Shown: positions 19,011 to 36,392, numbered from the stretch's first letter. The stretch is 64,000 nucleotides of DNA from a bacterium (GCA_035419245.1 DAOLSP010000006.1:66758-130757), one strand, 5' to 3'. Numbers and translations: made by a program. Notes: generated by a model not told the origin, from the letters alone.

Positions 19011-21005
19011 TCACTTTTCCGCCGGGAGGTTCTTTGCCGTTTTCACTCGCGCAAGCAGCACCCGGGCAGGCTGATAGCCCGGGAAGCGCCGAAGGGTGCG
19101 CTCGAGCAGGCTGACGGCGAGTTCCGCTTTTCCTGTGGCAAAATAGGCCAGGGCAAGCATATAGGCCGTATCGGGTGCTGTGGCCGGGTCCTCCGGAAAG
19201 CGCCCCAGGGATTCGTAGTAGCGGATGGCTTCTGTGAGACGGCGCTGCTTGAGGCAAATGTCACCGAGAACCCGTGTTGCCACCCGGGTGGGCTCCACCT
19301 GCAGTGAAGCCAGCAGCAGGGTCTCCGCCTTGACAAAATCCTGATCATCGTAGTGAATTTTTGCTAGATGGAGATAGGCCATGACCTGGTGCGGCAGCTG
19401 ATTGATAATGGTTTCGTATTCTTTCGCTGCGCGTCCGCGCTCGCCCCGCCGCAGATAATAGGCCGCGGCGCGCTCATGCACGGTGACCCAGCCGAACTGG
19501 TTGCGGACGGCTTGATCCGCGAGCGCGCGTAGGGTATCGCTGGCCGGGACGGCTGGAATGGGCAGCGCCCGGGTTTGAAAAGGCCAGCGGGTGGTAAGGA
19601 GAGCAATCTTGCGCTCGGCCATATAGTCATCCACCGGAGTCAAGGGCCGGTTCTGCCAGAGCAGGCTCTCCGCCGCTGCGCCACCATGCTCCCAGGCCGC
19701 CGCCGGCACCGGCAAACCCCGCTGCTGCAAGATGCGGGCATACTCCGCGGCCATCAGAAACTGTCCTCGAGCGGTGGGATGAAGATGTTCGCTGATGAGA
19801 TTAAGGCCGATGAGGGAGTCCGGCGAAGCTGCCTTGAAGCAGAGTTCGATATCCGCGACCTGGCAACCCTCCCGGTGCGCCATCGAGCGGATCAGATCGT
19901 TGAACCGGCTGTCGGTGCGGAAGCGCAGCGCATCAAGATCCCTCGCCCGCTGGTATTCGTGCAAGGCCTGTTCCTTGTGGCCGAGGGCATCGCAGCACTG
20001 CGCCAGGCGATAATGGACCTCGGCATAGCTGGAATCTAGCTGCATCGCCTCCTGAAAAGGGACCCGCGCGGAATCCGCCTGACCGCGAGCCTGCAGATCC
20101 CGCCCGATCTGGAAGAGCTGCTGAAATCGCCTGATGACAGCCGGATCCAGGCCCGCGGCATGCAGCGAAACAAAAGGTACCTGCTGGCGCAGGTTGGAGG
20201 CCTGGGTCGAAAACAGCAGCGGGATGTGATGCTGCCGGCAAAGATCCGCTAGCGCCAGCATGTTCTTTTGAAAAATCTCAAAGGCCTGGTTGTAAAGCCG
20301 GCTTCCCTGTGGTACTGTGCGCCCGCCCGCGACCTGTTCCATCAGCGTCGTGCGCCCGACCGATTCCTCATCCTGGGTCCCGAAAAGGCCGAGCACCTTG
20401 AGGAGCCCCTCCCGGACGAGTTGGAAGGTGCGCATGTGGACCAGTCGGAGATAGAGGAGATTGAGGGTGCGGGAGGTTGTCAGGCGTGCGTTCGAGGCGA
20501 CTCCAAGCGCCCCATAGAATTCATTGTGGCCGTCGTAGACGATCACAAGGTCGGGCTGGTACCGGAAGAGCTCCCGGCCAATATCGAGCACCGTGTAGCT
20601 GTTAGTCGCCGTCATGCCGAGATTGATGACCTCGACCGGCTGGCCGGGACAAAGCGCTTTCAGACGCTCGCGGAGAAAGGAAGCAAAGGCCCCGTTGTAC
20701 CAGTAGGGGTAGCCGACGGTGGTCGATCCACCCAGGCAGAAAATCCGGAAGGTTCCAGCCGGCTTGTCCGCACCTAGGTACTCCGGCGATGGATCCGGAG
20801 TGAAACGGGTGCTGTTGCCGAAATAACGGTTCTTGCAGGCGGGATTGAGGGTGTACCAAGTACGGCCCTGAAAACGCTCCTGCGAAAAAAGGGCGAGATC
20901 GGGGCCAAAATCAATCCAGCGTAATAAAAGCTCGAACAAGCCGAGAAGCAGTAGGGGTAGCAGCACGGCAAGCAGGGTGAAGAGACACCTTCGCCGGGGA
21001 TTCAT
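19011..21005 (-). CDS. Membrane-anchored SGNH/GDSL-like hydrolase domain protein with C-terminal TPR repeats
   Basis: N-terminal anchor MNPRRRCLFTLLAVLLPLLLLGLF. SGNH-like blocks (FCLGGSTTVGY, VIVYDGHNEF, SEHLHPT). Multiple TPR-like helical repeats in the last ~250 aa. The longest ORF starts with TTG at 21101; internal ATGs at 21053 and 21005. 21005 was chosen because it places the signal anchor at the N-terminus. Confidence 0.65.
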   Translation of the reverse strand: MNPRRRCLFTLLAVLLPLLLLGLFELLLRWIDFGPDLALFSQERFQGRTWYTLNPACKNRYFGNSTRFTPDPSPEYLGADKPAGTFRIFCLGGSTTVGYPYWYNGAFASFLRERLKALCPGQPVEVINLGMTATNSYTVLDIGRELFRYQPDLVIVYDGHNEFYGALGVASNARLTTSRTLNLLYLRLVHMRTFQLVREGLLKVLGLFGTQDEESVGRTTLMEQVAGGRTVPQGSRLYNQAFEIFQKNMLALADLCRQHHIPLLFSTQASNLRQQVPFVSLHAAGLDPAVIRRFQQLFQIGRDLQARGQADSARVPFQEAMQLDSSYAEVHYRLAQCCDALGHKEQALHEYQRARDLDALRFRTDSRFNDLIRSMAHREGCQVADIELCFKAASPDSLIGLNLISEHLHPTARGQFLMAAEYARILQQRGLPVPAAAWEHGGAAAESLLWQNRPLTPVDDYMAERKIALLTTRWPFQTRALPIPAVPASDTLRALADQAVRNQFGWVTVHERAAAYYLRRGERGRAAKEYETIINQLPHQVMAYLHLAKIHYDDQDFVKAETLLLASLQVEPTRVATRVLGDICLKQRRLTEAIRYYESLGRFPEDPATAPDTAYMLALAYFATGKAELAVSLLERTLRRFPGYQPARVLLARVKTAKNLPAEK

Positions 21006-21143
21006 GGCCTGGAGCACAACATCACGATCTTGCTTTTTCACATCTCTCTCCATTGTCGGAAGCAGAGCAAACGGGATGGGAGAATATATAGCAATAAACA
21101 ATCCGATTCAATTCCTATTTATCATTTCCTGGAGGTACAGAAG

Positions 21144-24100
21144 ATGAACCAGACGAAAAACCTGCTGGGATGGGTCCTCTTGCTTTCGCTCATTCTGGCG
21201 GGTGCGCTCCTCGCGGGAACGACCGGCAAGATCGCCGGGACTATCACCGAAAAGTCGACGGGGGAAGCCCTGCCCGGGGCCAACATCCTCGTCACCGGCT
21301 CTCGCCTGGGTGCAGTGACCGATCTTAGCGGTCGCTACACCATTCTCGAGGTTCCGCCCGGGACCTATTCGCTCCAGGTCACCTTTCTTGGCCATCAGAA
21401 GACCATCGTCAATGATGTCCGCGTTTACATCGACCAGACCGCGCGCGTCGATGTCGCCATGATCCAGGAAGCGATCGAGATCGGAGATGTGGTGGTGGTC
21501 GCTGAACGGCCGCTGATAAAGCCCGATGTGGCCACCAGTGTGGTCGCCGTCTCCGGCACCGAGCTCAAAAGCCTGCCGGTAGCCAATGTGACCGACGTCA
21601 TGGGGATGCAGGCAGGCATTGACGGTACCAACATTCGCGGCGTCGGTCTCGATGAAGCCCTCTTCATGGTCGACGGCGTCACCATGCGCGATCCGCGCAA
21701 CAACCAGGCCCTCACCAAGGTGGCGCTAAGCACTGTACGCGAGATCTCGGTTGAGCGCGGCGGTTTCAATGCCGAATACGGCCAGGTTCAGTCCGGCATC
21801 GTCAACGTGGTCACCAACGAGGGCAAGGCCAGAGGCTACTCGGGCAGCTTCAATCTTCGTCTGACTCCGCCGGCACGCAAGTATTTCCACGGCTCGGACA
21901 TGCCCGATGTCAACTCACCCCAATCCTACTGGCTGCGCCCTTTCTATGATGACGCGGTCTGCTGGACTGGGACCACCAGCGGCGCCTGGGACACCTACAC
22001 CCAATCCAAATATCTTGAATTTGAGGGCTGGAATGCTGTTTCGCAGCAGCTCTGCACCGACAACAACCCGAACAATGATCTCTCACCGCTGGCTGCCCGG
22101 CGGGTTTTCGAATACTATACCCGCAAGCGGCAGATCAACGATCAGCCCGACTATGAAATCGATGGCGGCTTTGGCGGACCGGTGCCAATTGTCTCCAAGA
22201 TGCTGGGCAACCTGCGTTTCTTCGCCTCCTACCGCGGACAAAAGAGCCTCTTGCTGTGGCCGAGCGCGCGGCCGGATTACAAGGATTACGACGCCCGCAT
22301 CGTCGTCAATTCAGACGTCAGTGAGTCCATGAGGCTGCGCATTTCGGGCTTATCCGGAAACATCGCGACCATGGCCGGCAACCGCGCTTCCGAATCCACC
22401 TACAAGCAATGGCCCTACGAACTGGCCGGCACCACGCTCGGGACCGGGGGCTATGCCCTTTTCAACATGTTCAGCGACTGGACCTACGGCCTCGCAAACC
22501 GCAAACACAATGCCCTTTCCGCCAAACTGACCCACATGCTCAGCAAATCGACCTATTATGAGATTTCGGCGGAATATTTCAACCGTAAATACGACACCCA
22601 CTCGCCGGAGATGCGCGATACCTCCAAAACCACTGAAATCATCCCCGGCTATTTCGCCACCTCCACGCCTTATGGGGTTTTCTACGGCATCGACGGCATC
22701 GTTAGCGGCATCAATGAAGGCAACCAGAACGCCCTTGCCCGCGACAAGTCGAACGTCAGCAGCACTACGCTCAAGGCGGATTTGACCAGCCAGGTCAACT
22801 TCAACAACCTCGTCAAGTCGGGGGTCGAGTTTGTTTACAACGACCTGAACCTCGATTACGGCTACATCCGCATGCAAAGCGGCGGGCTGCAATATGACAA
22901 TCGGACCCAGATGCGCGATTTCCCGGTCCGGGCTGCCATGTATTTACAGGATAAACTCGAGACCAAGGGATTCATCCTCAACGTGGGCCTGCGCCTCGAT
23001 TATAGCAATTCGCGCACCGACTGGTGGGCCCTTGACCCATTCAATCCCCTGTTCTACTCCTACAAGTATACAGAGACCGCCGATTTGGCCAAGACCAAGG
23101 CGAAGGGGCAATGGCAGCTCTCTCCACGCCTCGGCATCTCCCACCCCATCACCGACCGGTCCAAGCTCTACTTCAACTATGGCCATTTCAAACAGATGCC
23201 GACCTATGAATCCCAGTACCGCTTTGACCGCTCCTCTGACAATACGCTGGTCCGTTTCGGCGATCCCAATCTGACCCTGGCCAAAACCATCGCCTATGAA
23301 CTGGGCTACGATCACGATCTCTTCAATGGCCAGCTTCTCCTCCAACTGGCCGCTTTTTACCGGGACATCAGCGACCAGCAGAATACCACCTCCTACCGCC
23401 CGGCCTATGGCACAGCCTACACGGTGACCACCAGCACCGCTTATTCCGACATCCGAGGCTTCGAGCTCACCCTGCGCAAATCGGCCGGACGCTGGTTCTA
23501 CGGCTTTTTAAATTATACCTATCAAGCCACCTCGAATGGCGCCTTCGGCGAGAATTATGTCTTCGAGGATCCCAAGTCGCAGCAAGATTACGATGAGAAC
23601 ACGGTGAATATCTATCAGACCCGCTCGGTGCCCTCTCCCTTCGCCCGGGCCAACCTGACCTTCTCCACGCCGCGACAGTTCGGCCGCCCAAGACTCTTCA
23701 ACCACGCGGTCCTGGGTGATCTGATCGCCAATATTCTGCTGCGTTGGAATCAGGGCGGCTGGACAACCTACAATCCCAATAACGCCGGCACCACCAGTTT
23801 CAACAACAACACCAATAACAAGATCCAGAACAACATTCAGTATCTCGACTACTTCGATGCCACCCTGCGTTTAAGCAAGTCCATCCAGATCCGCAAGGTC
23901 AATCTGCAGGTTTTCGCTGACATCAACAACCTCTTCAACACCCGTCGTCTCAATAACACCGGTGATCTGAACTATCGTAAATCCCTGCATCTGCCCCGGA
24001 GCGATGCCTACAACAATATCCCAGGCGACGATAAATTTGGCGATTACCGCAAGCCCGGCGTCGCCTGGCAGCCTATGGAGAATGGCGTGGACTTTAACTC

Positions 24101-24338
24101 CATCCCCTCCTCCAACCGTGCCTGGTATTACGACAAATCCACGAACGCTTACTGGTATTATACCGACAACGTTACGGTCCTGGAGGTTAAGGACCGCTGG
24201 GCCAAGGTCGATAAGGCCAAGGTCGATAAGGCCATCAAGGACAGGGCGTATATCGATATGCCCAATCCCTCCACTTACTGGTTCCTCAATCCGCGGACGG
24301 TCACCTTTGGGGTTCGTCTCGCCTTCGATATCGATTGA
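21144..24338 (+). CDS. TonB-dependent receptor-like outer-membrane protein with N-terminal CarboxypepD_reg-like domain
   Basis: GGAGG RBS 8 nt before ATG. Signal peptide. Cna-B/carboxypeptidase-regulatory-like beta-sandwich (GKIAGTITEKSTGEALPGANILV…). Plug-like region, then ~800 aa of alternating beta-barrel sequence. The C-terminus ends …VRLAFDID, which is not the canonical terminal aromatic. Confidence 0.7.
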   Translation: MNQTKNLLGWVLLLSLILAGALLAGTTGKIAGTITEKSTGEALPGANILVTGSRLGAVTDLSGRYTILEVPPGTYSLQVTFLGHQKTIVNDVRVYIDQTARVDVAMIQEAIEIGDVVVVAERPLIKPDVATSVVAVSGTELKSLPVANVTDVMGMQAGIDGTNIRGVGLDEALFMVDGVTMRDPRNNQALTKVALSTVREISVERGGFNAEYGQVQSGIVNVVTNEGKARGYSGSFNLRLTPPARKYFHGSDMPDVNSPQSYWLRPFYDDAVCWTGTTSGAWDTYTQSKYLEFEGWNAVSQQLCTDNNPNNDLSPLAARRVFEYYTRKRQINDQPDYEIDGGFGGPVPIVSKMLGNLRFFASYRGQKSLLLWPSARPDYKDYDARIVVNSDVSESMRLRISGLSGNIATMAGNRASESTYKQWPYELAGTTLGTGGYALFNMFSDWTYGLANRKHNALSAKLTHMLSKSTYYEISAEYFNRKYDTHSPEMRDTSKTTEIIPGYFATSTPYGVFYGIDGIVSGINEGNQNALARDKSNVSSTTLKADLTSQVNFNNLVKSGVEFVYNDLNLDYGYIRMQSGGLQYDNRTQMRDFPVRAAMYLQDKLETKGFILNVGLRLDYSNSRTDWWALDPFNPLFYSYKYTETADLAKTKAKGQWQLSPRLGISHPITDRSKLYFNYGHFKQMPTYESQYRFDRSSDNTLVRFGDPNLTLAKTIAYELGYDHDLFNGQLLLQLAAFYRDISDQQNTTSYRPAYGTAYTVTTSTAYSDIRGFELTLRKSAGRWFYGFLNYTYQATSNGAFGENYVFEDPKSQQDYDENTVNIYQTRSVPSPFARANLTFSTPRQFGRPRLFNHAVLGDLIANILLRWNQGGWTTYNPNNAGTTSFNNNTNNKIQNNIQYLDYFDATLRLSKSIQIRKVNLQVFADINNLFNTRRLNNTGDLNYRKSLHLPRSDAYNNIPGDDKFGDYRKPGVAWQPMENGVDFNSIPSSNRAWYYDKSTNAYWYYTDNVTVLEVKDRWAKVDKAKVDKAIKDRAYIDMPNPSTYWFLNPRTVTFGVRLAFDID

Positions 24339-24373
24339 TGGCCAGCCACCAACCTAACGAATGGGAATGCACG

Positions 24374-26647
24374 ATGAATAAAAAGAAAATGAGACGCTTG
24401 CCCCTGCTGCTGGCCATTAGTACCCTGTTAGGGGCCGGCAGTATCGATCGTACAACGGCCCAGGACCTCCGGTGGATCCGAGTCGGCCAGCTGCAATGCT
24501 TTTTCATGGATTTCGGAAACGAGTGCGAACTTTATCCTTTCACGACGACCAATTTTCTCGCCTGGCCCGCCCAGTATGGAGATAACCAGTATGCCACCCG
24601 CGCGAAAGCGGTCTGGATAGGGGCGAGCGATTTTTATGACCCCGTCGAGAAAAAGACCAAATCGGTCAAGGTGATCGGCTCCGGACCGCGTTATGACGCG
24701 GACAACCAGGCGGCGATGATTTTTTCGACCAGCATCAAGCTGATCGGCCGCGAACAACCCCCGAAAGTCATCGTCGACAACCAGAACGGCTCTTCCAATA
24801 CCCTTTATGATGCCCTGGACGAAATCGACCCCAACCTCCCCAGCGACCGGATGGTGGTCATCCGTTATAACACCTCCATGGGGGTGTCGGTCATCAAAAA
24901 AGTTCTCGGCTTTGTCCAGCAAAACCATGACACCTATTTCATCCACGACTACGTTTTCAAGAATACCGGCATTTATAATACCAAGGGTGAAATCAACGCC
25001 CAGACGCTCAAGAACTTTTGGGTCTATTTCAGCTACCGATATGCGATGAATGGGGTCTGCTCGAATGGTTACAGTTCGGCATGGGGCGATTTCGGAATGG
25101 AATGGGGCTCCAGCACGGTAGCCCACGACTTCGGACCCCCCTACCGCTCCCGCCCGGACAGCCTCCGCGGTTTTTATGCCTTCTACAGCCCGCTGAAGGG
25201 AAGTTATGGCACCCGCAACGCCGTGACCAGTCTCGGCTATGACTACGACTGGGGCTGCCCGAAGCAGACCGGCGGCGGACTCAACCTCGACGGTCTCCTC
25301 GGTGCCGCCAAATTTGCTGGCTGCGTAACCCTGCTCGCTTCCAAGGGATCCGGCGCCCTGTTCAACATCGACGACTACAATCAACCTGCGACCGTGAACT
25401 ATTTCAATGCCGACGGTTCAACAACAACCAACCCGCAAAGCCAGTATGACGAAACCGCAATGAAGCTGCGCTGGGCGGAGATGACCGAAGGCCACCTGCA
25501 AAAGTCGCTATGGGAGGCCGTCGGTGATGGACGCTACTACGCCGACTGGCTGAACACGGATCCCCTGCATCCCTCCGGCGGCATGTATGGCCAGGGCTTC
25601 GGCCCCTATACCCTGGCCCCCGGCGACAGCATCCGCATCGTCTTCGCCGAAGGCGTCAATGGTCTGGCTTGGGAAAAATGCCGCGAGGTGGGGGCCAACT
25701 GGTATCAGTACTTCGCCGGGACCGGGGCACCGACCCTCATCAAGCCGGATGGCAACACTACGACCAACGTCTCGGAATACCAGAAGGCCTGGGTCTTTTC
25801 GGGTGTCGATTCCATTCTACAGACGTATAAGAACGCCCGCGCCAATTTCCGCTCCGGCTACAAAATCCCCCAGCCCCCGCCGGCGCCGGCCTCCTTCACC
25901 GTCGCCTCCGGTGGCGATGCCATCAGCCTGACCTGGGCCGACAACGCCGACAAGACCCCCCACTTCAACGGCTATGTGATCTACCGCTCTGAGGGGCTGG
26001 TCAAGGACTACCGCGCGGTCTATGAAAAGATCTTTGAATGCGATGCCGCCCATGTGACCCACAGCTTTGACGACACCTCCGCAACCCGCGGCTTCAATTA
26101 TTACTACTTTATTCAATCCAAGGATGACGGGACGCAGAACGACGTCAAACCGGGCGTGCCGCTTTACAGCAGCATGTTCCTGACGATGACCTCGGTTTCT
26201 GCCAATCTGCTCCGCCCATCAGGCGATCTCCTCGCCGAGGTGCGCGTTGTCCCCAATCCCTACGATATCCGCTCCCGCAAATGGCAATTCGGCGAGGTCG
26301 GGCCTTATGATCGGATCATGTTTTATGGGATCCCACCCAAATGCAAGCTCAAAATCTTCAGCGACGACGGCACCCTGATCTGGGAAACCGTGCACAACAA
26401 TGGCTCCGGGGATGAGCCGTGGGACTCCAAGACCTCCTCTAACCAGATCGTCGTCAGCGGCATCTACATCCTCTATGTCGAGGTGACTGAGGATACCTAT
26501 GCAACCGACGACCGCATTGCGCGCTACGACATCACGGACGAGAATCTCAAGACGATCTATAAACAGGGTGAAGTGCTCTATCACAAAGGCGACAAAATCT
26601 TCAGCGCCGGACAGTCGACATTCCGCAAATTCGTAATTATTCGATAA
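24374..26647 (+). CDS. Secreted protein with Fn3 domain and a CTD-like C-terminal region
   Basis: Signal peptide MNKKKMRRLPLLLAISTLLGAG. Fn3-like segment (PPPAPASFTVASGGDAISLTWAD…YVIYRSEG…). C-terminal VVPNPYD…KLKIFSDDGTLIWE…WDSKT…GIYILYVEV… resembles T9SS/gliding CTD type B but carries ~50 extra residues ending …FVIIR. Lies 36 nt after the receptor gene. Confidence 0.7.
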   Translation: MNKKKMRRLPLLLAISTLLGAGSIDRTTAQDLRWIRVGQLQCFFMDFGNECELYPFTTTNFLAWPAQYGDNQYATRAKAVWIGASDFYDPVEKKTKSVKVIGSGPRYDADNQAAMIFSTSIKLIGREQPPKVIVDNQNGSSNTLYDALDEIDPNLPSDRMVVIRYNTSMGVSVIKKVLGFVQQNHDTYFIHDYVFKNTGIYNTKGEINAQTLKNFWVYFSYRYAMNGVCSNGYSSAWGDFGMEWGSSTVAHDFGPPYRSRPDSLRGFYAFYSPLKGSYGTRNAVTSLGYDYDWGCPKQTGGGLNLDGLLGAAKFAGCVTLLASKGSGALFNIDDYNQPATVNYFNADGSTTTNPQSQYDETAMKLRWAEMTEGHLQKSLWEAVGDGRYYADWLNTDPLHPSGGMYGQGFGPYTLAPGDSIRIVFAEGVNGLAWEKCREVGANWYQYFAGTGAPTLIKPDGNTTTNVSEYQKAWVFSGVDSILQTYKNARANFRSGYKIPQPPPAPASFTVASGGDAISLTWADNADKTPHFNGYVIYRSEGLVKDYRAVYEKIFECDAAHVTHSFDDTSATRGFNYYYFIQSKDDGTQNDVKPGVPLYSSMFLTMTSVSANLLRPSGDLLAEVRVVPNPYDIRSRKWQFGEVGPYDRIMFYGIPPKCKLKIFSDDGTLIWETVHNNGSGDEPWDSKTSSNQIVVSGIYILYVEVTEDTYATDDRIARYDITDENLKTIYKQGEVLYHKGDKIFSAGQSTFRKFVIIR

Positions 26648-26660
26648 CGGGAGCAGATCG

Positions 26661-27745: not shown

Positions 27746-29002
27746 ATGATGAAACCTTGCTGTATCTTAACCCTCGTCACGCTCCTGCTGGCGGCTGCCG
27801 GACTTTTGCTGACCGGTTGCGAATTTGATGTCGCCGAGCCCAAGTGGGAGGAGCCCGCGCCTGCTACCGCCGCCGTCTCGATTTCATCGATCGATCCGGC
27901 AGCCGCGGTTGCGGGCGTGAATTATATCACCATTCATGGCGCTAATTTCACCGGCGCGATTGATACCCTGATCGTCAAGAGCTCGGACAAGGATACCAGT
28001 TACCGCTATCTCTATAATGGCATCTACTTCGATGATGTCAAGGCGGATGTTGTCGAGTTCTCCGACACCGTCATTAAGGTGCGCCGACCCAAACTGGCCA
28101 ACGAGGCCTGTCAGGTCAAGGTGGTCTCCAATAAGGCGATGGCCACGGCCAAATATGCCCAGCCTTACAGGATCGACGCGGTCGTCGGCCGCTATGGCCT
28201 GTTCAACGAGGATCTGCCGCTGGCAGTGGTTGTCGTGGATGCCCGCGAGAATCTCTATGTAGTTGAGACCAACACCCGTTATATCCAAAAAATCACCCCT
28301 AGCGGCGACAAGACCAACATCGCCTCCGCCCTGCGCGTCCCCTACGACGCCAGCATCGGAGGGGACGGCAATCTCTATCTGGCCGGAAACAACAGGGCCA
28401 TCGACCGGGTTGACCTCTCCACTGGAACCATCGCTCGCTGGGTGAACCTCCCATCGGGAAAAGTGGTGAAATTCCTTGATTTCAGCGAAACCGGATACTG
28501 CTTTGCCGGCGGAACCCGTACCGATCTGGTCGTCATTCCCGGGGATCTGTCAACCACCGCGGTCTCAGCCGGTTTTTACGCCACGCAGGAGATCCTCGCC
28601 ATCCGCTGCTATAACGGCGCCGTATACGTCGCTGCCCGGGCCACAGCAGCCGATCCGGTCAAGATCTACCGGCATGCCATTGGCGACAAGGGCAGCGTCG
28701 GCGCCCAAGAGCTGGTCCTCGATCTCTCCAAAACCAGCATGTTCGCCGGCCGAAGCCTCAAGGCCATCAGTTTCGCCTCGGATGGTACCATGATAATCGC
28801 AACCGATGCAGCCGATCCCCTGCTCAGCTATACTCCCGCCACCGGCCAGATGGATTATTATTACAAGGGAATCCTCAATCCATATTGCAAGCACTTTTCC
28901 TGGGGCAGTAAGACTTATCTCTATATGATCTGCGGCGATGACACCGCCGGCGAAGAGTGGACGGTCTATCGCGTCGACATGGGGACGACAGCGGGCAACT
29001 GA
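27746..29002 (+). CDS. Lipoprotein with IPT/TIG-like domain and beta-propeller-like C-terminal region
   Basis: Lipobox LLTGC. Ig-like segment (SISSIDPAAAVAGVNYITIHGANFTG). Repetitive beta-rich C-terminal part (NLYVVE / NLYLAG repeats). Confidence 0.65.
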   Translation: MMKPCCILTLVTLLLAAAGLLLTGCEFDVAEPKWEEPAPATAAVSISSIDPAAAVAGVNYITIHGANFTGAIDTLIVKSSDKDTSYRYLYNGIYFDDVKADVVEFSDTVIKVRRPKLANEACQVKVVSNKAMATAKYAQPYRIDAVVGRYGLFNEDLPLAVVVVDARENLYVVETNTRYIQKITPSGDKTNIASALRVPYDASIGGDGNLYLAGNNRAIDRVDLSTGTIARWVNLPSGKVVKFLDFSETGYCFAGGTRTDLVVIPGDLSTTAVSAGFYATQEILAIRCYNGAVYVAARATAADPVKIYRHAIGDKGSVGAQELVLDLSKTSMFAGRSLKAISFASDGTMIIATDAADPLLSYTPATGQMDYYYKGILNPYCKHFSWGSKTYLYMICGDDTAGEEWTVYRVDMGTTAGN

Positions 29003-29085
29003 CCCCCGTCACCATCCAGCCCAGGGCCTGTGGCGTCTGCAACAGGCCCTATTATTAATTGCACGGTCAACCCCAGGGAGTCTCC

Positions 29086-31017
29086 ATGCGTCTTACCATG
29101 TCAAGCCTGCTTTGTTTCCTCGGCCTCGCGGGATCCACGCTGCTTCCGGCGCAAACGGCCGAGAACTGTTTTCTCGTGGATTTCGCCCCCAGGACGGCGT
29201 GGATCCCACCCTCTCAGGCGGCGGCTAAACCGCCCGCCAATCCGGACGTGATCGTGACCATCAGCACCATGGATACGCTTGGCAAGGTTTCCCCGTACAT
29301 CTTTGGCAATGCCCTGGCGGCCTGGGTAGGCAATGACGTGATGAACAAGGTGCTTATCGGCCATATCCAGGAGCTCTCCCCCACCCTCATCCGCTATCCC
29401 GGCGGCAGCTGGGGCGATATCTTTTTTTGGAATGGCGATCCAGGCGACCTGCCTGCCACCATCCCCGACGGCGCCAACAATGGCGCAGCGATCCCCCTCT
29501 CCCCTCAGTTCGGTGCGAACAGCTGGACCACGACTCTGGATAACTATTATTCCATGCGCGATCAGGTCAACGCAACCCAGGGATTGATCACCGTCAACTA
29601 TGGCTATGCCCGCTACGGCCTTGGTGATAAACCGGTGGAGCGCGCCGCCCATCTGGCTGCCGACTGGGTCCGCCATGATGAAGGTCGCACCAAATTCTGG
29701 GAGATCGGTAATGAGAACGCCGGGCCGTGGGAAGCCGGCTGGCAGATTGATACCACCCGCAACCGGGACGGCCAACCCAAAATCATCACCGGCGAGATCT
29801 ATGGACGCCACTTTAGAATTTTCGCTGATTCCATGCGGGCCGCGGCGGCCGAAATGGATGAAACCATTTACATCGGCGGTCAGATCCTCCACTATGACGG
29901 CACGACCAGCTGGAATGTCGCGGACCGAACCTGGAATGAAGGGTTTTTCCGGGAAGTCGGTGGGAGTGCGGATTTTTATGTGATGCACAATTATTTCGGC
30001 AGCACCGGGGTCAGCAAGGCCAGGAGCCAGATCGATCTGGCGCGCAGCGAGATCAACAAAAACATAACCTTCATCCGCCAGGATATCGCCCGGAAACAGG
30101 CCTTCAGCAGACCGGTCGCCCTGACGGAGTGGAATATGGTCGATCATCCCCAGGCCGTGACCTCCATCGCGAACGGCATGCAGGCCGTCGTGCTCAGCTG
30201 CGAGATGATCCAGAACCAGTTCGGCCTGTCGGCCCGCTGGCTGCTGGTTCATTGGGAATCCGGCGGGATGTTCTACAAGGGCGCCAACCCGGCCATTCCA
30301 GCCTGGAGCCCGCGTCCCGACTTTTACTATCTCTACTACCTGCAGCGTTTCACCGGCAACCACAGCATCAAATCAGCTGTGGCCGGCAGCAGCGATGTGC
30401 TCTCGTACGCCACTACCTTCGCCTCCGGCGAGCTGGGCGTGGTGACCGTCAACAAGGGCGCCACCGAACAGATCATCCAGCTCTCGCCGCAAGATTTCTC
30501 CCCAGGCGGCCAATACTACCTCTACTCGCTCGTCGGAGAGACCAGCGAGCAATGGGCGCAAAAGGTCGTGGTGAACGACGCCGGCCCATCGGGAGCAGCC
30601 TGGGGACCGGTTGAGGGGCTGGAAAAGATACTCGCCCGGGCTTACGACACCAACGGCGGGATCCGCTACACCTCACCGCCGTTGTCGGTGCAGTATGTGC
30701 TCATTAGCCGCGCCGTGAACCGCGTCGAATCCGCACCCCCCCTAACGCCGGACCATTTCGAACTCGGCCCCAATTATCCGAATCCCTTCAACGCCCGGAC
30801 CATGATCTCTTATCGTCTACCCCATGAGATAGAGGTGAGGCTGCGGATCCTGGACCTGAGCGGGCGAGAGGTCGCTCAATTGCTCGCTGGCACCCGGCAG
30901 CAAGCTGGTGTGTACCGCATCGCGTTTGATGCCAGCTGTCTCAGCAGCGGCCTCTATCTCTGTAGACTGGAGGCAGGCCCCCTCGCTGCAACCCGGAAAA
31001 TGCTCCTGATCAAGTGA
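29086..31017 (+). CDS. T9SS-secreted clan GH-A glycoside hydrolase (GH51/GH39-like, possible alpha-L-arabinofuranosidase) with type-A CTD
   Basis: AGGGAG RBS. Signal peptide. RYPGGSWGDIFFWNGD N-terminal block. Acid/base WEIGNENAGPWE and nucleophile LTEWNM motifs of clan GH-A. C-terminal LGPNYPNPFNARTMISY…GLYLCRL…KMLLIK CTD. Confidence 0.8.
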   Translation: MRLTMSSLLCFLGLAGSTLLPAQTAENCFLVDFAPRTAWIPPSQAAAKPPANPDVIVTISTMDTLGKVSPYIFGNALAAWVGNDVMNKVLIGHIQELSPTLIRYPGGSWGDIFFWNGDPGDLPATIPDGANNGAAIPLSPQFGANSWTTTLDNYYSMRDQVNATQGLITVNYGYARYGLGDKPVERAAHLAADWVRHDEGRTKFWEIGNENAGPWEAGWQIDTTRNRDGQPKIITGEIYGRHFRIFADSMRAAAAEMDETIYIGGQILHYDGTTSWNVADRTWNEGFFREVGGSADFYVMHNYFGSTGVSKARSQIDLARSEINKNITFIRQDIARKQAFSRPVALTEWNMVDHPQAVTSIANGMQAVVLSCEMIQNQFGLSARWLLVHWESGGMFYKGANPAIPAWSPRPDFYYLYYLQRFTGNHSIKSAVAGSSDVLSYATTFASGELGVVTVNKGATEQIIQLSPQDFSPGGQYYLYSLVGETSEQWAQKVVVNDAGPSGAAWGPVEGLEKILARAYDTNGGIRYTSPPLSVQYVLISRAVNRVESAPPLTPDHFELGPNYPNPFNARTMISYRLPHEIEVRLRILDLSGREVAQLLAGTRQQAGVYRIAFDASCLSSGLYLCRLEAGPLAATRKMLLIK

Positions 31018-31026
31018 TCCCACTAC

Positions 31027-33462
31027 CTATTCGCTGATGATCTGCAGCACCGCCTCCTGCAAGCCTTCCGAACGGGCGGTTAAAACGATCACGCCCGGCT
31101 CGTCGCGCGTCTGGATCACGCACAGGCATTTACCGTTGAACGCCATGCGATGGTCCGCCTTGAAGGGCTCCATGCTGGTCTGGAGGCCGTTATCGACACC
31201 GGCGATCACAGCCGGCCCCTGCAGGGAAAACTGCACCAGGTTGTCCGCCCGCGGCGCCAGGACCCCGGCGCTATCCACGACCTCGACCGTCACGAACGAA
31301 AGATCACGGCCGTCCGCCTTGATGCGATCGCGGTCGGCGGTCAGGACTATTTTTGCCGGAGCCCCGGCAGTCTGCATACGCTGCTCGAGCACTGCGCTGC
31401 CCTCCTTATAGGCCACCGCCTTGAGAAAGCCTGGTTCGAAGGGCACCCGCCAGACCAGCTGGAAGGTATCGCGGGTCTTCTCCTTTTTGCCCAGGGAACG
31501 ACCGTTGAGGAACAGCTCCACCGCACCCTGGTTGGTGTAGGCCCAAACATCGATCACCTGGCCGGATTGCCAGTTCCAATGCGGGAAGAGATGCAGCATA
31601 GGCCGGCTGGTCCATTCGGCCTGATAAAAATAGTAGCCATCCTTGGGGAAACCGGCCAGATCGATCAGGCCGAAGTAGGAGCTGCGCGCCGGCCAGGGAT
31701 AGGGCGTCGGCTCGCCGAGATAATCGAAACCGGTCCAGATAAACATGCCGGAGACATAGGGATACTCGCGCACGATCCGCCAGTTATCAGCATGGGTGGC
31801 CCCCCAGGGGACGCGGCAGTTGTCGTAAGCCGAGCAGGTGAGATCGGGATTCATCGGCCCCCGTTTGTTCCAGGCAATCGGCCAGATCCGCACGGAATCG
31901 GAGGGCATGTCATACGCGCCACGGGTGGCGATGGCGGAGTTGGTTTCGCTGGCGACTAGTTTCAGTCCCGGATAATCCTGGGGGAAGGTTCGCAGATCTT
32001 GCTCGTGATAGTTGCGGCCGACGACATCCAGAGCGCCCGAGCGGATGATGCGATTCTGCGGCGAGGGGTCGTTGCAGGCCGAGGTGATCGGTCGGGTAGG
32101 ATCGAGATCGCGGACGATTGCAGCCAGCTCTTTGGCCATCTCGATGCCGCTGTCATCCCACTGTTCGGGAATCTCGTTGCCTATGCTCCAGAGCACCACG
32201 CAAGGATGGTTGCGGTCACGCCGTATCAGATCCTCGAGATCACGGCGGTGCCATGCATCCCAATCGAGGTGATAATCGTAGGGATTCTTGGGCAGCTTCC
32301 ACATATCGTAGGCCTCGTCCATAACCAGTAAGCCCATGCGGTCGCAAAGGTCGAGCAATTCCGGCGCCGGTGGATTGTGGGAGGTACGGATGGCATTGCA
32401 GCCCATCGCCTTGAGCAGCTCGAGCTGACGCTCGAGGGCGCGCTCGTTGATCGCCGCCCCGAGGCAGCCGAGATCGTGATGGTTGCAGACCCCCAGCAGC
32501 TTCATCGCCACCCCGTTGAGGGCGAAGCCTTTCTCCAGGTCGAAAGCGATGGTGCGGATGCCAAAGGGGGTCTCGTACCGGTCCTCCTCCCGGTTTTCAG
32601 CCAGCACCCGGGTCACCGCACGATAGAGCACCGGCTTTTCGACCGACCACAAGGCCGGCTGCGTCACGGTGACGTTCCCTGATATTGGTTCAACGGCTCC
32701 CGGGGGCACACTTATCGCATTGCGCAGAGCAGCCACCCGGCGGCCAGCGGGATCGAAAACCTCGGTCATGACCGTCACCTGCTGCGAAGTCTCGCGGTCA
32801 TTGCGAACCCGGATCTGCAGGGAAATCACCGCCTGCTGCGCCGAGACTTCCGGCGTAGTGATGCAGGTGCCCCAGTGATCAACATAGACCCGGCCGGTGA
32901 GGGTCAGCCAGACATTGCGGTAGATCCCCGAGCCGGAATACCAGCGCGAATTGGGCTGCTTCGAGTTGTCGACACGCACCGCGAGGACATTCGCGGCACC
33001 ACCGAATTTCAGCCACGGTGTGAGTTCATACCGGAAGGAACTGTACCCGTAGGGCCGCTTGCCAAGGTAATGGCCGTTAATCCATACCTCACTGTTGCGG
33101 TACACGCCGTCGAAATCAATGAAAGCGCTACGGCCCATGTCCGCCTGCAGCAGCGTGAAGGTTTTGCGGTACCATCCGATGCCGCCGGGCAGGGCGCCGC
33201 CGTCGGTCGTAGCGGGGTTATCCTTGCTGAACGCCCCCTCGATGCTCCAGTCGTGGGGCAGGTTCAGGGTTCGCCAGTCACTGTCGGCGAAACCGGGTTC
33301 CTGGGCGCCAGGGAGATCCCCCAGCTTGAACTTCCAGTCTCGGGTGAAGCGCTCGATCCTCCGCGGGGACGGTCCAGGGGCGGAACACTGCATGCAGATC
33401 GTCGCCAAGGCCATAAGGGAAACCGCCATCCTAAGGGCCACCAGACTCTGATTACAGGTCAT
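31027..33462 (-). CDS. GH2 beta-galactosidase-like glycoside hydrolase, secreted
   Basis: GH2 sugar-binding, Ig-like and TIM-barrel order (NLPHDWSIEG…, WSIGNE acid). ~800 aa. Hydrophobic N-terminus. Start ambiguous: GTG at 33468, ATG at 33462 (chosen, GGAG upstream) or ATG at 33429. Confidence 0.8.
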   Translation of the reverse strand: MTCNQSLVALRMAVSLMALATICMQCSAPGPSPRRIERFTRDWKFKLGDLPGAQEPGFADSDWRTLNLPHDWSIEGAFSKDNPATTDGGALPGGIGWYRKTFTLLQADMGRSAFIDFDGVYRNSEVWINGHYLGKRPYGYSSFRYELTPWLKFGGAANVLAVRVDNSKQPNSRWYSGSGIYRNVWLTLTGRVYVDHWGTCITTPEVSAQQAVISLQIRVRNDRETSQQVTVMTEVFDPAGRRVAALRNAISVPPGAVEPISGNVTVTQPALWSVEKPVLYRAVTRVLAENREEDRYETPFGIRTIAFDLEKGFALNGVAMKLLGVCNHHDLGCLGAAINERALERQLELLKAMGCNAIRTSHNPPAPELLDLCDRMGLLVMDEAYDMWKLPKNPYDYHLDWDAWHRRDLEDLIRRDRNHPCVVLWSIGNEIPEQWDDSGIEMAKELAAIVRDLDPTRPITSACNDPSPQNRIIRSGALDVVGRNYHEQDLRTFPQDYPGLKLVASETNSAIATRGAYDMPSDSVRIWPIAWNKRGPMNPDLTCSAYDNCRVPWGATHADNWRIVREYPYVSGMFIWTGFDYLGEPTPYPWPARSSYFGLIDLAGFPKDGYYFYQAEWTSRPMLHLFPHWNWQSGQVIDVWAYTNQGAVELFLNGRSLGKKEKTRDTFQLVWRVPFEPGFLKAVAYKEGSAVLEQRMQTAGAPAKIVLTADRDRIKADGRDLSFVTVEVVDSAGVLAPRADNLVQFSLQGPAVIAGVDNGLQTSMEPFKADHRMAFNGKCLCVIQTRDEPGVIVLTARSEGLQEAVLQIISE

Positions 33463-33545
33463 AGACACTCCTGATAAAATTAAAATACCTTGAAGGACGA
33501 GTGTCCAGCAGCCACGCCCTCCCTTCCCGCGTGGCTGCGCTCTTC

Positions 33546-36392
33546 CTATTGCATCCGTACAGTGACAGGGGCACCGGTATAGGGCACTCGGGCCGCGGGC
33601 GCAGCGGTAAAATCGAGTCCGGACGGTTTCTGCCGACTCACCCAGACCACTTCAAAGGTGCGCTCCCGGAGCATGCCGGGGAATTCTCCCTGGCGCGCGC
33701 CCAGCGTCAGCTTGCGCTCCTTTTCCGACCAGGTGACCGGGATAGTCGCGTACTGCCCTTTCTCGTAATTGTAATTGACCCCTTCATCCTCGTAAAGAGT
33801 GAAGGCGCCGTCGCGGCCGGTATAGACGTAGAGGCGGATGGGATCGGGAGGCTTTTCCATAACGTATTGCACAGGCGGCCCGAAGGGGATGATCGACCCC
33901 TCGCGGACATAGAGCGGGATATCGCCCAGCGGCGCTTCGGCGACGATTTCCCGCCCGCCGGCCGCAAATTCGCCGGTCTGGAGGCGATACCATCCGGTGC
34001 CGGCAGGCAGATAGAGGGCACGGGCGCGGGCCTTGTAGGTCGTGACCGGGTTGACCAGAATCGCCGGACCGAACAGGTACTGGTCGCCGATCGATCGCAC
34101 CTTCTGGTCCTTCGGGAAATCCATAACCAGAGCGCGCATGAAGGTATAGTCCTTGAAGGTCACCTCCGCAGCCATAGAGTAGATATAGGGCAGCAGGCGA
34201 TAGCGCAGCTCGTCATAAGCCAGCATAGCCTGGTAAGCGGGATGCCCGGTGGGGGCGATGTTCCATATCTCCCGGTAGGGAAATTCGCCATGCACCCGTA
34301 GCAGAGGCACAAAGGTCCCGAACTGGAACCAGCGGGCATTGAGCTCGCGCCACTCCTCGAGATCTTCGGGTTTGACGTTGCGTTCGAAACGCGGTTCGAC
34401 CGAGAAGCCGCCGATATCCATGGTCCACCAGGGTACACCGGAGAGATTGAAATTGAGCCCGGCGGAGATCTGCGCCTTGAGGTCATACCAGCGCGTGACG
34501 ATATCGCCGCTCCAGGTGGCGGCGGCATAACGCTGCTGCCCGGCGAAGACCGAACGGGTAAGGATGAAAACCCGCTGGTTGGGCCGGGTCTTGCGCTGAT
34601 TTTCGTAGATGCCGCCCGAATGGACCAGGGTGTAGCTGTTGAGATAGCGCGAGGAAGAACCCAGGCCGGTCGGGCCGATGCGCCGCCGCGTCTCCTCGAG
34701 AGAGAGGTTACTATGGATGTCTGGTTCCGTAGCATCAAGCCACCAGGCATCGAAGCCCTTGCTGAAGAGATGTTCGTTGATCTGGTCCCAGAAGAGCTTG
34801 CGGGCCTCGTCGCGGTAGGGATCGTAGAACGAGCAGGTGTAGCCCGGGCCCACCCAGTCGCGCTCTTTGACCAGAACATTGCGCATATAGAGCCAGCCGG
34901 GATGGGCGGCGAACTCGTTGTAATGTTCGGTGCCGACGTAGAACTTGGGCCAGACCGAAATCATGATCTGTGCATGCAGGTCGTTGTGGAGCTCGTCCAC
35001 CATCCCCTTGGGATCGGGGAAGCGGCTCGGGTCGAACTCATGGCTGCCCCATTGATCCTCTTTCCAGTAGAACCAGTCGAGGACGATATTGTCGAAGGGA
35101 ATCTTGCGGGCGCGAAACTCCTTGACCACGGAAAGGAGTTCCTCCTGCGAGGTGTAGCGTTGGCGGCTCTGCCAGAGGCCCAGTGCCCATTTGGGCATCA
35201 TCGGGGCCTTGCCGGTGAGGGTGCGGTAGCCATGGATGACCTCATCGAAGCTGCCGCCATGGACGAAGTAATAGTCAATCTGATCGCCAATCTGCGACCA
35301 GAGCGAAAGCGTATTGGGCGGGGTATCCCGGTCCAACGGCAGAAATTTGAGGCCGATGTAACCGCCCATCGGAATCCATTCGATTCGGAGGTCATAGCGC
35401 TTGCCCGCGGACATCTGCAGACGTGGCAGAGTCGTCCATGGCAGCCAGTTCTGCCGGTAGCCATCGGCGACCAGATCTCCATTCAGCCACATTTTATAAA
35501 AGCCGGAGGCATAAAGGCGGAATTTGAACTCACCACTCTCCGCGGCTTCGATCTGGCCGGAATAACGAACGCTGGCGACATTTTCCCGAAATCCATCAGG
35601 ATAGGGATCATTGACATCGATGAACTCATGCTCGATACGCGGCTCGGTGCGCGCCGTAAAGAGATCCTGAAAACCCGCCGTCCGGAAATATTCAGCGGTG
35701 AGGCCTCCCAAGGTGCCGTTCTTGTCGTAGAGTTTGAGACCGGAGAGCGATTGAAAATCGCGGCAGTCGCCGAAGCGAGTCTGGGAGGTATTGTCCCAGA
35801 GGATGCCGTAATTCCGGCTCGATACCAGGAAGGGATTGACATCGAGGATGTTAAGCTGGAAGAGATCGACATCCTGCCCCTTGTAATTCATCATGTCGTT
35901 TTGTTGCTCGCCGAGGCCGTAAAAGGCCTCATCAGCCGGGGAGTGAAAGAGCTGCTGGATGTGGTCGGCCTGCTCTTCCATAACCACCGCCGGGGTGAAG
36001 CGGCGGCCGTTGGTGCGCTCGGCGAGAAGAAGCGAGCCCTTGCGGTCATAGAACGAGACCGCGCCAGTGGTCTTGTGGACCCGAACCCGCAGCTTGGCGG
36101 TGGTCAACTCCACATAGACCCCTTTGTCTCTGATGTTCCAGCTCGGAGTCCCGGCATCGAAAGCGATGCGCATCAGACTGGGACGGGCTGAAAAGGTATC
36201 GGCGGGAGAGGCCACGACGCGGATGAGCTGATCACCGCAAACCTCGATTTTGAGGCGGGCCGTACCCGATGCCAGCCTTTTGTCCAGGGTGAAAAGGAGG
36301 CCATCCGGGAGTTTCTCAAAACTGAACGCTGCCGCGGCGAGGGCGGAGATCATCCCAGCTGCCAGCGAGAGGCGGGAGCACACACGATTCAT
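33546..36392 (-). CDS. GH31 alpha-glycosidase with inserted PA14 domain (alpha-xylosidase-like)
   Basis: GH31 catalytic region (…GFDAWWLDATEP…, …WSGDI…). PA14-like insertion (YFRTAGFQDLF…YSGQIEAAESGEFKFRLYASGFYKMWLNGD). This architecture is known from xyloglucan-active alpha-xylosidases. Signal peptide present. Confidence 0.8.
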   Translation of the reverse strand: MNRVCSRLSLAAGMISALAAAAFSFEKLPDGLLFTLDKRLASGTARLKIEVCGDQLIRVVASPADTFSARPSLMRIAFDAGTPSWNIRDKGVYVELTTAKLRVRVHKTTGAVSFYDRKGSLLLAERTNGRRFTPAVVMEEQADHIQQLFHSPADEAFYGLGEQQNDMMNYKGQDVDLFQLNILDVNPFLVSSRNYGILWDNTSQTRFGDCRDFQSLSGLKLYDKNGTLGGLTAEYFRTAGFQDLFTARTEPRIEHEFIDVNDPYPDGFRENVASVRYSGQIEAAESGEFKFRLYASGFYKMWLNGDLVADGYRQNWLPWTTLPRLQMSAGKRYDLRIEWIPMGGYIGLKFLPLDRDTPPNTLSLWSQIGDQIDYYFVHGGSFDEVIHGYRTLTGKAPMMPKWALGLWQSRQRYTSQEELLSVVKEFRARKIPFDNIVLDWFYWKEDQWGSHEFDPSRFPDPKGMVDELHNDLHAQIMISVWPKFYVGTEHYNEFAAHPGWLYMRNVLVKERDWVGPGYTCSFYDPYRDEARKLFWDQINEHLFSKGFDAWWLDATEPDIHSNLSLEETRRRIGPTGLGSSSRYLNSYTLVHSGGIYENQRKTRPNQRVFILTRSVFAGQQRYAAATWSGDIVTRWYDLKAQISAGLNFNLSGVPWWTMDIGGFSVEPRFERNVKPEDLEEWRELNARWFQFGTFVPLLRVHGEFPYREIWNIAPTGHPAYQAMLAYDELRYRLLPYIYSMAAEVTFKDYTFMRALVMDFPKDQKVRSIGDQYLFGPAILVNPVTTYKARARALYLPAGTGWYRLQTGEFAAGGREIVAEAPLGDIPLYVREGSIIPFGPPVQYVMEKPPDPIRLYVYTGRDGAFTLYEDEGVNYNYEKGQYATIPVTWSEKERKLTLGARQGEFPGMLRERTFEVVWVSRQKPSGLDFTAAPAARVPYTGAPVTVRMQ

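Follow-up and report, generated by a model that had tools for sequence, protein, structure and literature searches.

A probable polysaccharide-utilization-type locus built around a conserved four-gene TonB-dependent receptor cassette

Gene content and the four-gene cassette

The interval 19011-36392 of a 64,000-nucleotide stretch of bacterial DNA (GCA_035419245.1 DAOLSP010000006.1:66758-130757; hereafter the window) encodes a TonB-dependent receptor (TBDR) together with several glycoside hydrolases (GHs). A preliminary description had presented it as a hemicellulose locus resembling a polysaccharide utilization locus (PUL). Open reading frame (ORF) calling on the window gives eight long ORFs in this interval, so that every gene of that description is present where it was placed, and public gene calls on the source contig (ENA ERZ928041, k127_160693, 365 kb) agree with these ORFs. 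The third gene, central to what follows, is here called protX.

19011-21053, minus strand: SGNH/GDSL hydrolase with a transmembrane helix, a GDSL domain and tetratricopeptide repeats (TPRs), divergent from the TBDR
21144-24338, plus strand: TBDR, 1064 aa, with CarboxypepD_reg, Plug and barrel
24374-26647, plus strand: protX, 757 aa, without a Pfam family; Fn3-like domain and a domain resembling the C-terminal domain (CTD) of type IX secretion system (T9SS) cargo
26661-27725, plus strand: PorV/PorQ-family (FadL-like) barrel, 354 aa (NF033709)
27746-29002, plus strand: IPT/TIG lipoprotein, 418 aa, with lipobox, TIG domain and weak propeller matches
29086-31017, plus strand: predicted clan GH-A enzyme with a type-A T9SS CTD, 643 aa (Por_Secre_tail)
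31027-33462, minus strand: predicted GH2 beta-galactosidase with a signal peptide (GalB model)
33546-36392, minus strand: predicted GH31 + PA14 alpha-xylosidase with a signal peptide (GH31 and PA14 Pfam models)

Spacers in the plus-strand block are 35, 13, 20, and 83 bp, an operon-like spacing. The source organism appears to be an uncultured lineage of the Fibrobacteres-Chlorobi-Bacteroidetes (FCB) group outside Bacteroidia, as the preliminary description had assumed. This placement follows from the identities of GatB (55738-57204), which shares 78-85% with proteins of metagenome-assembled genomes (MAGs) named simply “bacterium” and 54-59% with KSB1- or Calditrichaeota-named proteins, its nearest named relatives by MAG label.

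The locus was surveyed by scanning one genome per GTDB species, with ORF calling and BLAST against the proteins of the window, which gave 76 protX loci (L001-L076). Their taxa are those of the MAG labels: Ignavibacteriota/Ignavibacteriae, “Bacteroidota”, Melioribacteraceae, KSB1, Zhuqueibacter, Calditrichia, and Neomarinimicrobiota. A homologous TBDR lies directly upstream of protX in 63 of the 64 evaluable loci; downstream of it, a PorV-like barrel was found in 49 of 54 and an IPT lipoprotein in 44 of 48. TBDR, protX, PorV/PorQ barrel and IPT lipoprotein, in this order, are a near-invariant four-gene cassette. The preliminary description had spoken of an alternative wiring of glycan capture, which these results support, but it had missed that protX, the barrel, the lipoprotein and the TBDR form a rigid module. 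Full-text literature searches returned no description of the cassette, and it is apparently undescribed.

Several MAGs carry 2-4 copies of the cassette, some of them in tandem. At L022, L030, L059, and L070, a single genome has a pair of cassettes, complete or almost so, arranged in tandem or at a short distance, and Zod_Metabat.1387 and SRP323688_co1_225 have 3-4 copies on separate contigs. Cassette neighbors include hybrid two-component regulators (10), LacI regulators (9) and triplets of a substrate-binding protein, a kinase and a sigma54 regulator (5-8), as well as SSF symporters, FGGY sugar kinases, xylose isomerase, and genes of the GH13, PL11, GH27, and GH51 types. Because these neighbors are sugar-related and the cassette is often multi-copy, it is probably a generic module for glycan import that has undergone duplication and whose copies have been combined with various sets of enzymes, as those of SusC/SusD have been in Bacteroidia.

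The protX of the window is 72-82% identical to proteins of Ignavibacteriae- or KSB1-labeled MAGs, whereas GatB from the same contig reaches at most 59% with any phylum-named protein. The gap would reflect either unusually strong constraint on the cassette, transfer of the locus between FCB lineages, or unreliable MAG labels.

The receptor itself differs from those of Bacteroidia PULs. Against the SusC model TIGR04056 it scores 69-70 bits, compared to a cut-off of 368, and the match is limited to model positions 2-180, which cover the N-terminal extension and plug region. It has no PDB sequence match at E ≤ 1e-2, and thus matched no SusC structure; no ORF between 19011 and 36392 has a Pfam or NCBIfam match to SusD. 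The TBDR therefore fails the SusC model in an interval where the SusD scan was null, and a SusC/SusD-type PUL was rejected. Judged from sequence, the TBDR is not a member of the SusC/RagA family, and the locus would function like a PUL without being a SusC/SusD PUL. Here the preliminary description, which had specified a PUL-like locus with a non-SusC TBDR and no SusD, was borne out, as was its CarboxypepD_reg-like N-domain on the TBDR, which Pfam recovers. No regulator of sugar use was found in the locus by Pfam and NCBIfam scans.

No Pfam or NCBIfam family matches protX above cut-off, and nearly all of its 505 homologs at E ≤ 1e-5 are unnamed or “hypothetical”, with identities of 47-92% among the best matches listed. 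An exhaustive profile search gave a family of 401 clusters (50% identity) at E ≤ 1e-30. The protein starts with a signal peptide and a mostly-beta N-domain of ~470 aa, followed by an Fn3-like domain and, at the C-terminus, a T9SS-CTD-like domain into which a hairpin is inserted. Foldseek searches with its AlphaFold2 model (pLDDT 89, pTM 0.85) matched the GH94/GH15-type N-terminal “super-sandwich” and Fn3 repeats; no catalytic barrel was found in the model or by Foldseek. A PDB sequence search returned nothing meaningful, the bromodomain matches at E > 0.03 being due to chance. The label “Fn3 protein” given in the preliminary description is correct in that an Fn3-like domain is present by fold, but this domain is a minor part of a large conserved family.

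All eight protX members tested match CHU_C, the type-B CTD model, at 17-23 bits (E 8e-5 to 4e-3), below the gathering score of 27, and there is a weak match to the C-terminus of PorZ. The C-terminal ~140 residues carry, in order, VVPNPY, CKLKIF, SGIYILYVE, and, at the very C-terminus, RKFVxIR; the order is that of the type-A CTD, and short family members without the inserted hairpin have the classical CTD length. When compared by hhalign with the type-A CTD found in the GH-A family, the protX CTD aligned collinearly (E 0.043, probability ~1%), a result that we do not count as proof. Within protX, conservation peaks in the CTD core and tail (0.81 vs. 0.64 for the N-domain), while in the GH-A family the cleavable type-A CTD lags behind the catalytic domain (0.60 vs. 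0.71). This opposite pattern suggests that the CTD-like domain of protX is retained and interacting rather than discarded as a signal, and we infer that protX could be exported by the T9SS and kept at the surface by a PorV paralog of its own.

Long paralogs of the protX N-domain (P0243, P0272, P0287, P0333, P0347, P0351; 1100-1600 aa) carry, in fusion with this domain, either propellers of the BNR/Sortilin type or beta-helix repeats of the Chlamydia-PMP type. An above-threshold Por_Secre_tail (type-A CTD) terminates most of the paralogs scanned; P0333 shows FlgD_ig only. Since the N-domain is joined to such varied modules with type-A CTDs, it is likely a mobile extracellular module.

The next gene had been described as a FadL/PorV-like barrel, and its product scores 171.5 bits against NF033709 (PorV/PorQ family; cut-off 90). 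It stays below both equivalog cut-offs (PorV NF033710, 59.8 vs. 250; PorQ NF033711, 79.8 vs. 220), and its PDB sequence search gave a marginal PorV match only. With 58% median identity, the barrel is the best-conserved member of the cassette. A canonical-like PorV encoded at 51307-52410 of the window, to which it is 21% identical, is the better PorV candidate, and the identification of the cassette barrel as the housekeeping PorV was rejected. We propose that it is a specialized paralog, acting as a dedicated shuttle or anchor for protX.

The lipoprotein is the most variable member (median 37% identity). It matches TIG at 25.6 bits (cut-off 20.9) and, weakly, ScyE, Mal_s_1, and WD40. The preliminary term “IPT-propeller lipoprotein” thus fits as far as the lipobox and the IPT/TIG domain are concerned, and the propeller is probable, its matches being weak. 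At the lipobox Cys, nearly all homologs (L001-L076) have the sequence C-[EK]-Y-D-V-A-E-P-x-W, and identity elsewhere in the protein falls to 25-50%. The C-[EK]-YDVAEP-x-W segment could be a surface-export signal, with acidic residues as in the lipoprotein export signal (LES) motifs of Bacteroidota, or a docking peptide. The protein itself is a candidate substrate-binding “lid” or surface glycan-binding protein.

Glycosidases, substrate and linkage to the cassette

Three characterized xyloglucan alpha-xylosidases are the best full-length matches of the GH31 protein: BoGH31A (5jou, 995 bits), the Xanthomonas enzyme (7kmp, 952 bits), and Cellvibrio Xyl31A (2xvg, 892 bits); the next match falls below 300 bits. 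The protein has GH31 domains with a PA14 insert in Pfam, a signal peptide and no CTD, and its relationship to the xyloglucan alpha-xylosidases appears to be at the ortholog level. The GH2 protein scores 958 bits against the NCBIfam model NF041463 (GalB; cut-off 900), and its top PDB matches are beta-galactosidases, at ~755 bits. It is a predicted beta-galactosidase by family and may act on xyloglucan side chains. GH2 and GH31 both carry a signal peptide without a CTD and are presumably periplasmic for that reason. The family assignments in the locus, with a GH31 ortholog of xyloglucan alpha-xylosidases and a GH2 beta-galactosidase, are coherent as the preliminary description supposed.

The clan GH-A enzyme carries a type-A CTD above both cut-offs (Por_Secre_tail, 30.4 bits vs. 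27; TIGR04183, 27.1 vs. 23), in agreement with the earlier claim that the secreted enzyme uses the T9SS. That claim had been extended to “T9SS-secreted glycosidases” in the plural, which holds for the GH-A enzyme but not for GH2 and GH31, so the locus has only one tailed glycosidase. Its catalytic region has no Pfam match even at E ≤ 10, and phmmer against PDB aligned it with GH51 structures at E 0.08-0.6. The clan GH-A motifs WEIGNE (E210) and LTEWN (E348) are invariant in an alignment of 50 homologs, and the AlphaFold2 model (pLDDT 86) comprises a TIM barrel, a beta-sandwich and the CTD. Foldseek matched this model about equally well to GH51 arabinofuranosidases, GH79 glucuronidases/heparanases and GH44 xyloglucanases (E~1e-21, 11-16% identity). 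By its model and motifs, the protein is probably a clan GH-A hydrolase outside the assignable families. Membership in GH51 was rejected, as sequence support is absent and the GH51 fold, at 12-15% identity, is matched no better than GH79 or GH44. The preliminary term “GH51-like” therefore holds at the level of clan and fold but fails as a family assignment, and the alpha-L-arabinofuranosidase role attached to it is unsupported. We propose that the enzyme is extracellular and possibly endo-acting. As the sole secreted enzyme of the locus, it has no family match to the known endo-xyloglucanase families (GH5_4, GH9, GH12, GH16, GH44, GH74).

The SGNH protein matches Lipase_GDSL_2 at 46.5 bits (cut-off 32.9) in addition to TPRs, and its translation begins with a hydrophobic helix. 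The blocks GGSTT, GMT, GHNE, and [ED]HLHP, containing the Ser, Gly, Asn, and His residues, are conserved in the 9-10 homologs covering each, making the protein a candidate periplasmic esterase. Deacetylation, its role in the preliminary description, is not supported; the motifs are kept, but no more than eight of the 76 loci have a full-length homolog near the cassette.

Arabinoxylan had been named as a target alongside xyloglucan. It was rejected, because neither a xylanase nor a xylosidase for xylan was found in the locus. Xylose isomerase and xylulokinase genes flank the cassette in L004 and L005, whose protX is 72-75% identical to that of the window, and lie downstream of the cassette in L050; such neighbors fit an alpha-xylosidase pathway and therefore favor xyloglucan. 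Xyloglucan, or oligosaccharides derived from it, is the most likely substrate. In L008 and L026, GH31 and GH2 are separated by GH13 alpha-glucosidase-type genes, which in L007 lie beside GH31; the ortholog group may thus have substrates other than xyloglucan as well.

Homologs of the glycosidases recur near the cassette. A full-length GH31 homolog lies within 10 kb of protX in 21 of the 76 loci, GH31 together with GH2 in 11, and all three GH genes in seven; counting any of the GH31, GH2, and GH-A genes at ≤10 kb from the cassette gives 24 of 76, often on the same strand. All three GH genes are found in the locus in eight cases, including the cultured Rosettibacter firmus (L080), and lie on the strand of the cassette in seven. 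In L012, L027, L032, L036, L038, and L080 they are directly downstream of the cassette on that strand. The order in R. firmus is TBDR, protX, PorV-like barrel, IPT lipoprotein, GH31, GH2, and GH-A, with identities to the window of 53% (protX), 60% (PorV-like), 46% (IPT lipoprotein), 60% (GH31), 60% (GH2), and 54% (GH-A). The convergent layout of the window is common to it and its ~92%-identical relatives L001 and L003, and since the genes are on one strand elsewhere, it is best explained as a local inversion of a conserved unit. The plus- and minus-strand groups, which the preliminary description had joined into one locus, are thus linked, in that GH31, GH2, and GH-A occur in cassette loci of other genomes. 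Melioribacter genomes have a GH31, GH2, GH-A block of their own without an adjacent cassette.

The Melioribacter roseus genome paper named Mros0761-0759 “SusC, SusD, SusE” and placed them in an operon with GH13 and GH31 (Mros0758-0764; PMC3534657). These three genes may correspond to TBDR, protX, and the PorV-like barrel. In Melioribacter-labeled MAGs, the cassette lies beside GH31 (L027 and L028). In L007, L008, and L026, it is flanked by GH13 + GH31 sets.

Proposed function, alternatives and known systems

On balance, we favor the view that the interval is a polysaccharide-utilization-type locus built on the cassette, most likely for xyloglucan. With its type-A CTD as the export signal, the GH-A enzyme would leave the cell by way of the T9SS and attack the polymer outside. 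A surface complex of TBDR, protX, PorV paralog, and lipoprotein would capture the resulting fragments, with TonB-energized import through the TBDR, as synteny and context suggest. Within this complex, protX would be a T9SS cargo that keeps its CTD-like domain and is bound to the dedicated PorV/PorQ barrel on the outer face, and the fast-evolving IPT/propeller lipoprotein would give substrate specificity or act as a lid; protX, lipoprotein, and TBDR could thus work in place of SusD. In the periplasm, where we would place them, GH31 and GH2 could strip xylose and galactose side chains, as their families imply, and the SGNH protein might remove acetyl groups. The specific mechanism, with protX as a T9SS-anchored subunit of an import complex, is put forward tentatively, as somewhat less than an even bet. 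We are similarly guarded about the wider proposal that the TBDR, protX, PorV paralog, and IPT lipoprotein are an undescribed, phylum-spanning glycan-import machine of FCB phyla without SusC/SusD. The cassette may serve as a general multi-copy glycan importer in Ignavibacteriota, KSB1, Calditrichia, and Neomarinimicrobiota MAGs, in the place of SusC/SusD.

Several observations weigh against this interpretation. The locus has no recognizable endo-xyloglucanase family, beta-glucosidase, inner-membrane sugar transporter, or regulator; for beta-glucosidases (GH1/GH3), none was found in the locus or among the 32 window ORFs scanned, a set that leaves aside ~10 smaller ORFs. GH13 alpha-glucosidase is mixed into some related loci. 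The GH2 and GH31 genes of the window constitute a transcription unit of their own, convergent with the cassette, and their co-regulation with it is a prediction here. The support for the protX CTD is sub-threshold (17-23 bits vs. 27) and its profile-profile match to the type-A CTD is weak (E 0.043), every protein-protein contact in the proposed complex is deduced, and the taxon names rest on MAG labels. Finally, protX is ~40-60% identical across cassettes with different carbohydrate-active enzyme (CAZyme) neighbors. Such steadiness is more in keeping with a generic structural component than with a SusD-like binder of substrate, and protX could still be catalytic.

If protX were catalytic, it would be a surface enzyme (an unclassified GH, phosphorylase-like, or a lyase), and the cassette would consist of a TBDR, an enzyme, a T9SS shuttle, and a lipoprotein. 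Numerous Asp, Glu, Trp, Tyr, and Arg residues of the highly conserved N-domain are invariant, its best structural neighbors are GH94 phosphorylases, a GH15-type dextran dextrinase, and an exo-beta-D-arabinanase, and its fusions to BNR/sortilin propellers or beta-helix repeats in the long paralogs are of the kind seen for CAZyme modules. The structural matches, however, cover the non-catalytic N-terminal sandwich only (TM 0.22-0.28, 7-11% identity), and the model has neither an (alpha/alpha)6 nor a TIM barrel. Accompanying very different CAZyme sets would also be unusual for a substrate-specific enzyme, and we consider an enzymatic protX unlikely. About equally improbable, in our estimate, is that xyloglucan has been over-read from two exo-enzymes and that the glycan is another alpha-xylosylated or beta-galactosylated polymer, or mixed alpha-glucan/hemicellulose oligosaccharides. 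The lack of a known endo-xyloglucanase family and of a beta-glucosidase in the locus would be expected in that case, as would a GH-A enzyme equally near GH51, GH79, and GH44 and the GH13 alpha-glucosidase-type genes accompanying GH31/GH2 in L008, L026, and L007. Xyloglucan is nevertheless the better choice given a GH31 + PA14 protein at 892-995 bits to three enzymes from characterized xyloglucan systems, xylose isomerase and xylulokinase beside the closest cassette orthologs, and a beta-galactosidase, which is the expected partner for L-type side chains.

A more radical alternative treats the GH genes as mere neighbors of a cassette that imports peptides, metals, or lipids (through its FadL-like barrel), or that is a module of T9SS or outer-membrane biogenesis. 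GH2 and GH31 are indeed on the opposite strand, neither a sugar regulator nor an inner-membrane sugar transporter was found in the locus, PorV-family barrels belong to the FadL superfamily, and the three Melioribacter GH genes have no cassette beside them. This explanation is very unlikely in view of the 24 of 76 loci with GH31, GH2, and/or GH-A genes at ≤10 kb, often co-oriented; the commonest flanking genes are sugar regulators, transporters, kinases, and diverse CAZymes, and the multi-copy paralogy within genomes mirrors that of PULs.

As a polysaccharide-utilization-type locus, the interval can be compared to the XyGUL of Bacteroides ovatus, a SusC/SusD PUL for xyloglucan that carries the BoGH31A gene. 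Both are operon-like, with a TBDR bearing a CarboxypepD_reg extension, surface accessories, an extracellular enzyme, and periplasmic exo-glycosidases; the GH31 + PA14 protein appears to match BoGH31A at the ortholog level, and the locus includes a GH2 beta-galactosidase. As in PULs, hybrid two-component regulators adjoin relatives of the cassette. Unlike in XyGUL, the TBDR here fails the SusC/RagA model, SusD is missing from the interval, and the accessories are a T9SS-type protein, a PorV paralog, and an IPT lipoprotein. A predicted T9SS cargo, rather than a surface lipoprotein, serves as the extracellular enzyme and lies outside the known xyloglucanase families, and the locus has neither GH3 nor GH43.

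The xyloglucan loci of Cellvibrio japonicus and Xanthomonas, which we take to be SusD-less and to be the source of the GH31 structures 2xvg and 7kmp, are similar in combining a non-SusC TBDR with xyloglucan side-chain enzymes and a closely related GH31, without SusD. They are not known to have a T9SS, or a PorV-family barrel, protX, or IPT lipoprotein by the TBDR, and their secreted enzymes use other export routes. In Proteobacteria, TonB-dependent transporter (TBDT)-containing CAZyme clusters without SusD have been described as Xanthomonas “CUT loci” (PMC1790865).

For the pairing of protX with a barrel, precedents exist within the T9SS. For type-B CTD proteins, PorP/SprF-like barrels from adjacent genes are required and serve as the anchor (PMC9143113, PMC12618676), and PorZ-PorQ and PorU-PorV form the T9SS attachment complex (PMC10947112). 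As in these pairs, the gene for a CTD-like protein lies directly beside that for a specialized barrel of a T9SS-shuttle family, the CTD-like domain is conserved as if retained, and the best (sub-threshold) matches of protX are to the type-B CTD model and the PorZ C-terminus. The barrel differs from that of the type-B pairs in being of the PorV/PorQ family, not PorP/SprF, and the pair is placed inside a TBDR operon and multiplied with CAZymes; binding and retention would be expected by analogy. In the BAM complex of Bacteroides, too, a surface subunit has a FadL-like barrel as its anchor (PMC12578637).

Lipoprotein lids other than SusD have been proposed for non-SusC TBDTs, namely BtuG on BtuB, XusB, and the DUF4876 family (10.1101/2023.03.17.533168). 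The arrangement here is similar in that a lipoprotein is encoded beside a non-SusC TBDR with conserved synteny and may have a beta-propeller-type fold. BtuG is a beta-propeller. The IPT lipoprotein is distinguished from these lids by its IPT/TIG + propeller family, its C-[EK]-YDVAEP-x-W N-terminus, and the constant presence of two further accessory genes, and its context is glycan use rather than vitamin or siderophore uptake.

Sediments, soils, hot springs, and oceans harbor abundant Ignavibacteriota, KSB1, Calditrichota, and Marinimicrobia, phyla that are rich in CAZymes. A paddy-soil MAG study found susCD to be scarce in the CAZyme clusters of Ignavibacteriales (PMC10576277). If our interpretation is correct, the cassette would be a marker for predicting “PULs” in these phyla, as SusC/SusD pairs are for Bacteroidia, the unannotated protX family (>400 clusters at 50% identity) would gain a first role, and the functions of PorV-family shuttles would extend from secretion to TonB-dependent nutrient import. 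The interest lies more in this widespread accessory module than in a single locus, and the presence of the same seven-gene arrangement in the cultured R. firmus makes the idea directly testable.

Flanking features of the window

Two features lie just outside the interval on its left side:

17069-18898, plus strand: secreted protein with a tandemly repeated ~235-aa domain (two copies) and a type-A T9SS CTD
18907-18943, no strand assigned: hairpin with a 17-bp stem and T-runs on both sides, between the convergent CTD-repeat and SGNH genes

The CTD of the first is matched by Por_Secre_tail (34 bits) and TIGR04183 (41.7 bits), and the tandem domains, visible in the translation, are ~85% identical to each other. 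The family scan found no match besides the CTD and did not recognize the fold of the repeat domain. Homologs with 63-92% identity adjoin an SGNH gene and a TBDR in L001, L003, L008, and L037, so placed that the product may be an accessory or further surface component of the locus. The hairpin is the sole long stem found in this region by the terminator scan and is likely a bidirectional terminator marking the left edge of the locus. Overall, the number of terminators was not above the shuffled expectation, and the sigma70/terminator scan inside the operon was uninformative, with counts at shuffle level. Promoters of other types may also be in use in these phyla. Scans of the window for Rfam families and tRNAs returned no matches.

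To the right, and divergent from GH31, positions 36574-42180 (plus strand) encode a TetR regulator, an outer-membrane efflux protein, an HlyD-type adaptor, and two ABC-2 permeases. This is an ordinary efflux operon and forms the right boundary of the locus. A GH13 alpha-amylase with a C-terminal CBM48/AMPK-type glycogen-binding module is encoded ~8 kb upstream of the locus (9334-11394, plus strand); together with the GH13 genes of some related cassette loci, it hints at alpha-glucan use by the same organism.

The window also contains a second T9SS-type cluster on the minus strand (43772-52410). It includes the canonical-like PorV at 51307-52410 (PorV_fam, 299 bits; PorV equivalog, 231 vs. 250), a protein at 48125-51199 matching the “M6-like inactivated metalloprotease” model (502 vs. 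600 bits) with FG-GAP repeats and a type-A CTD, a weak PorV-family barrel at 46832-48085, and a PD40/TolB-like + Peptidase_MA protein at 43772-46825. These two consecutive pairs of a barrel and a large protein recall PorV-PorU and PorQ-PorZ, and by this analogy the cluster possibly encodes a non-Bacteroidia attachment complex.

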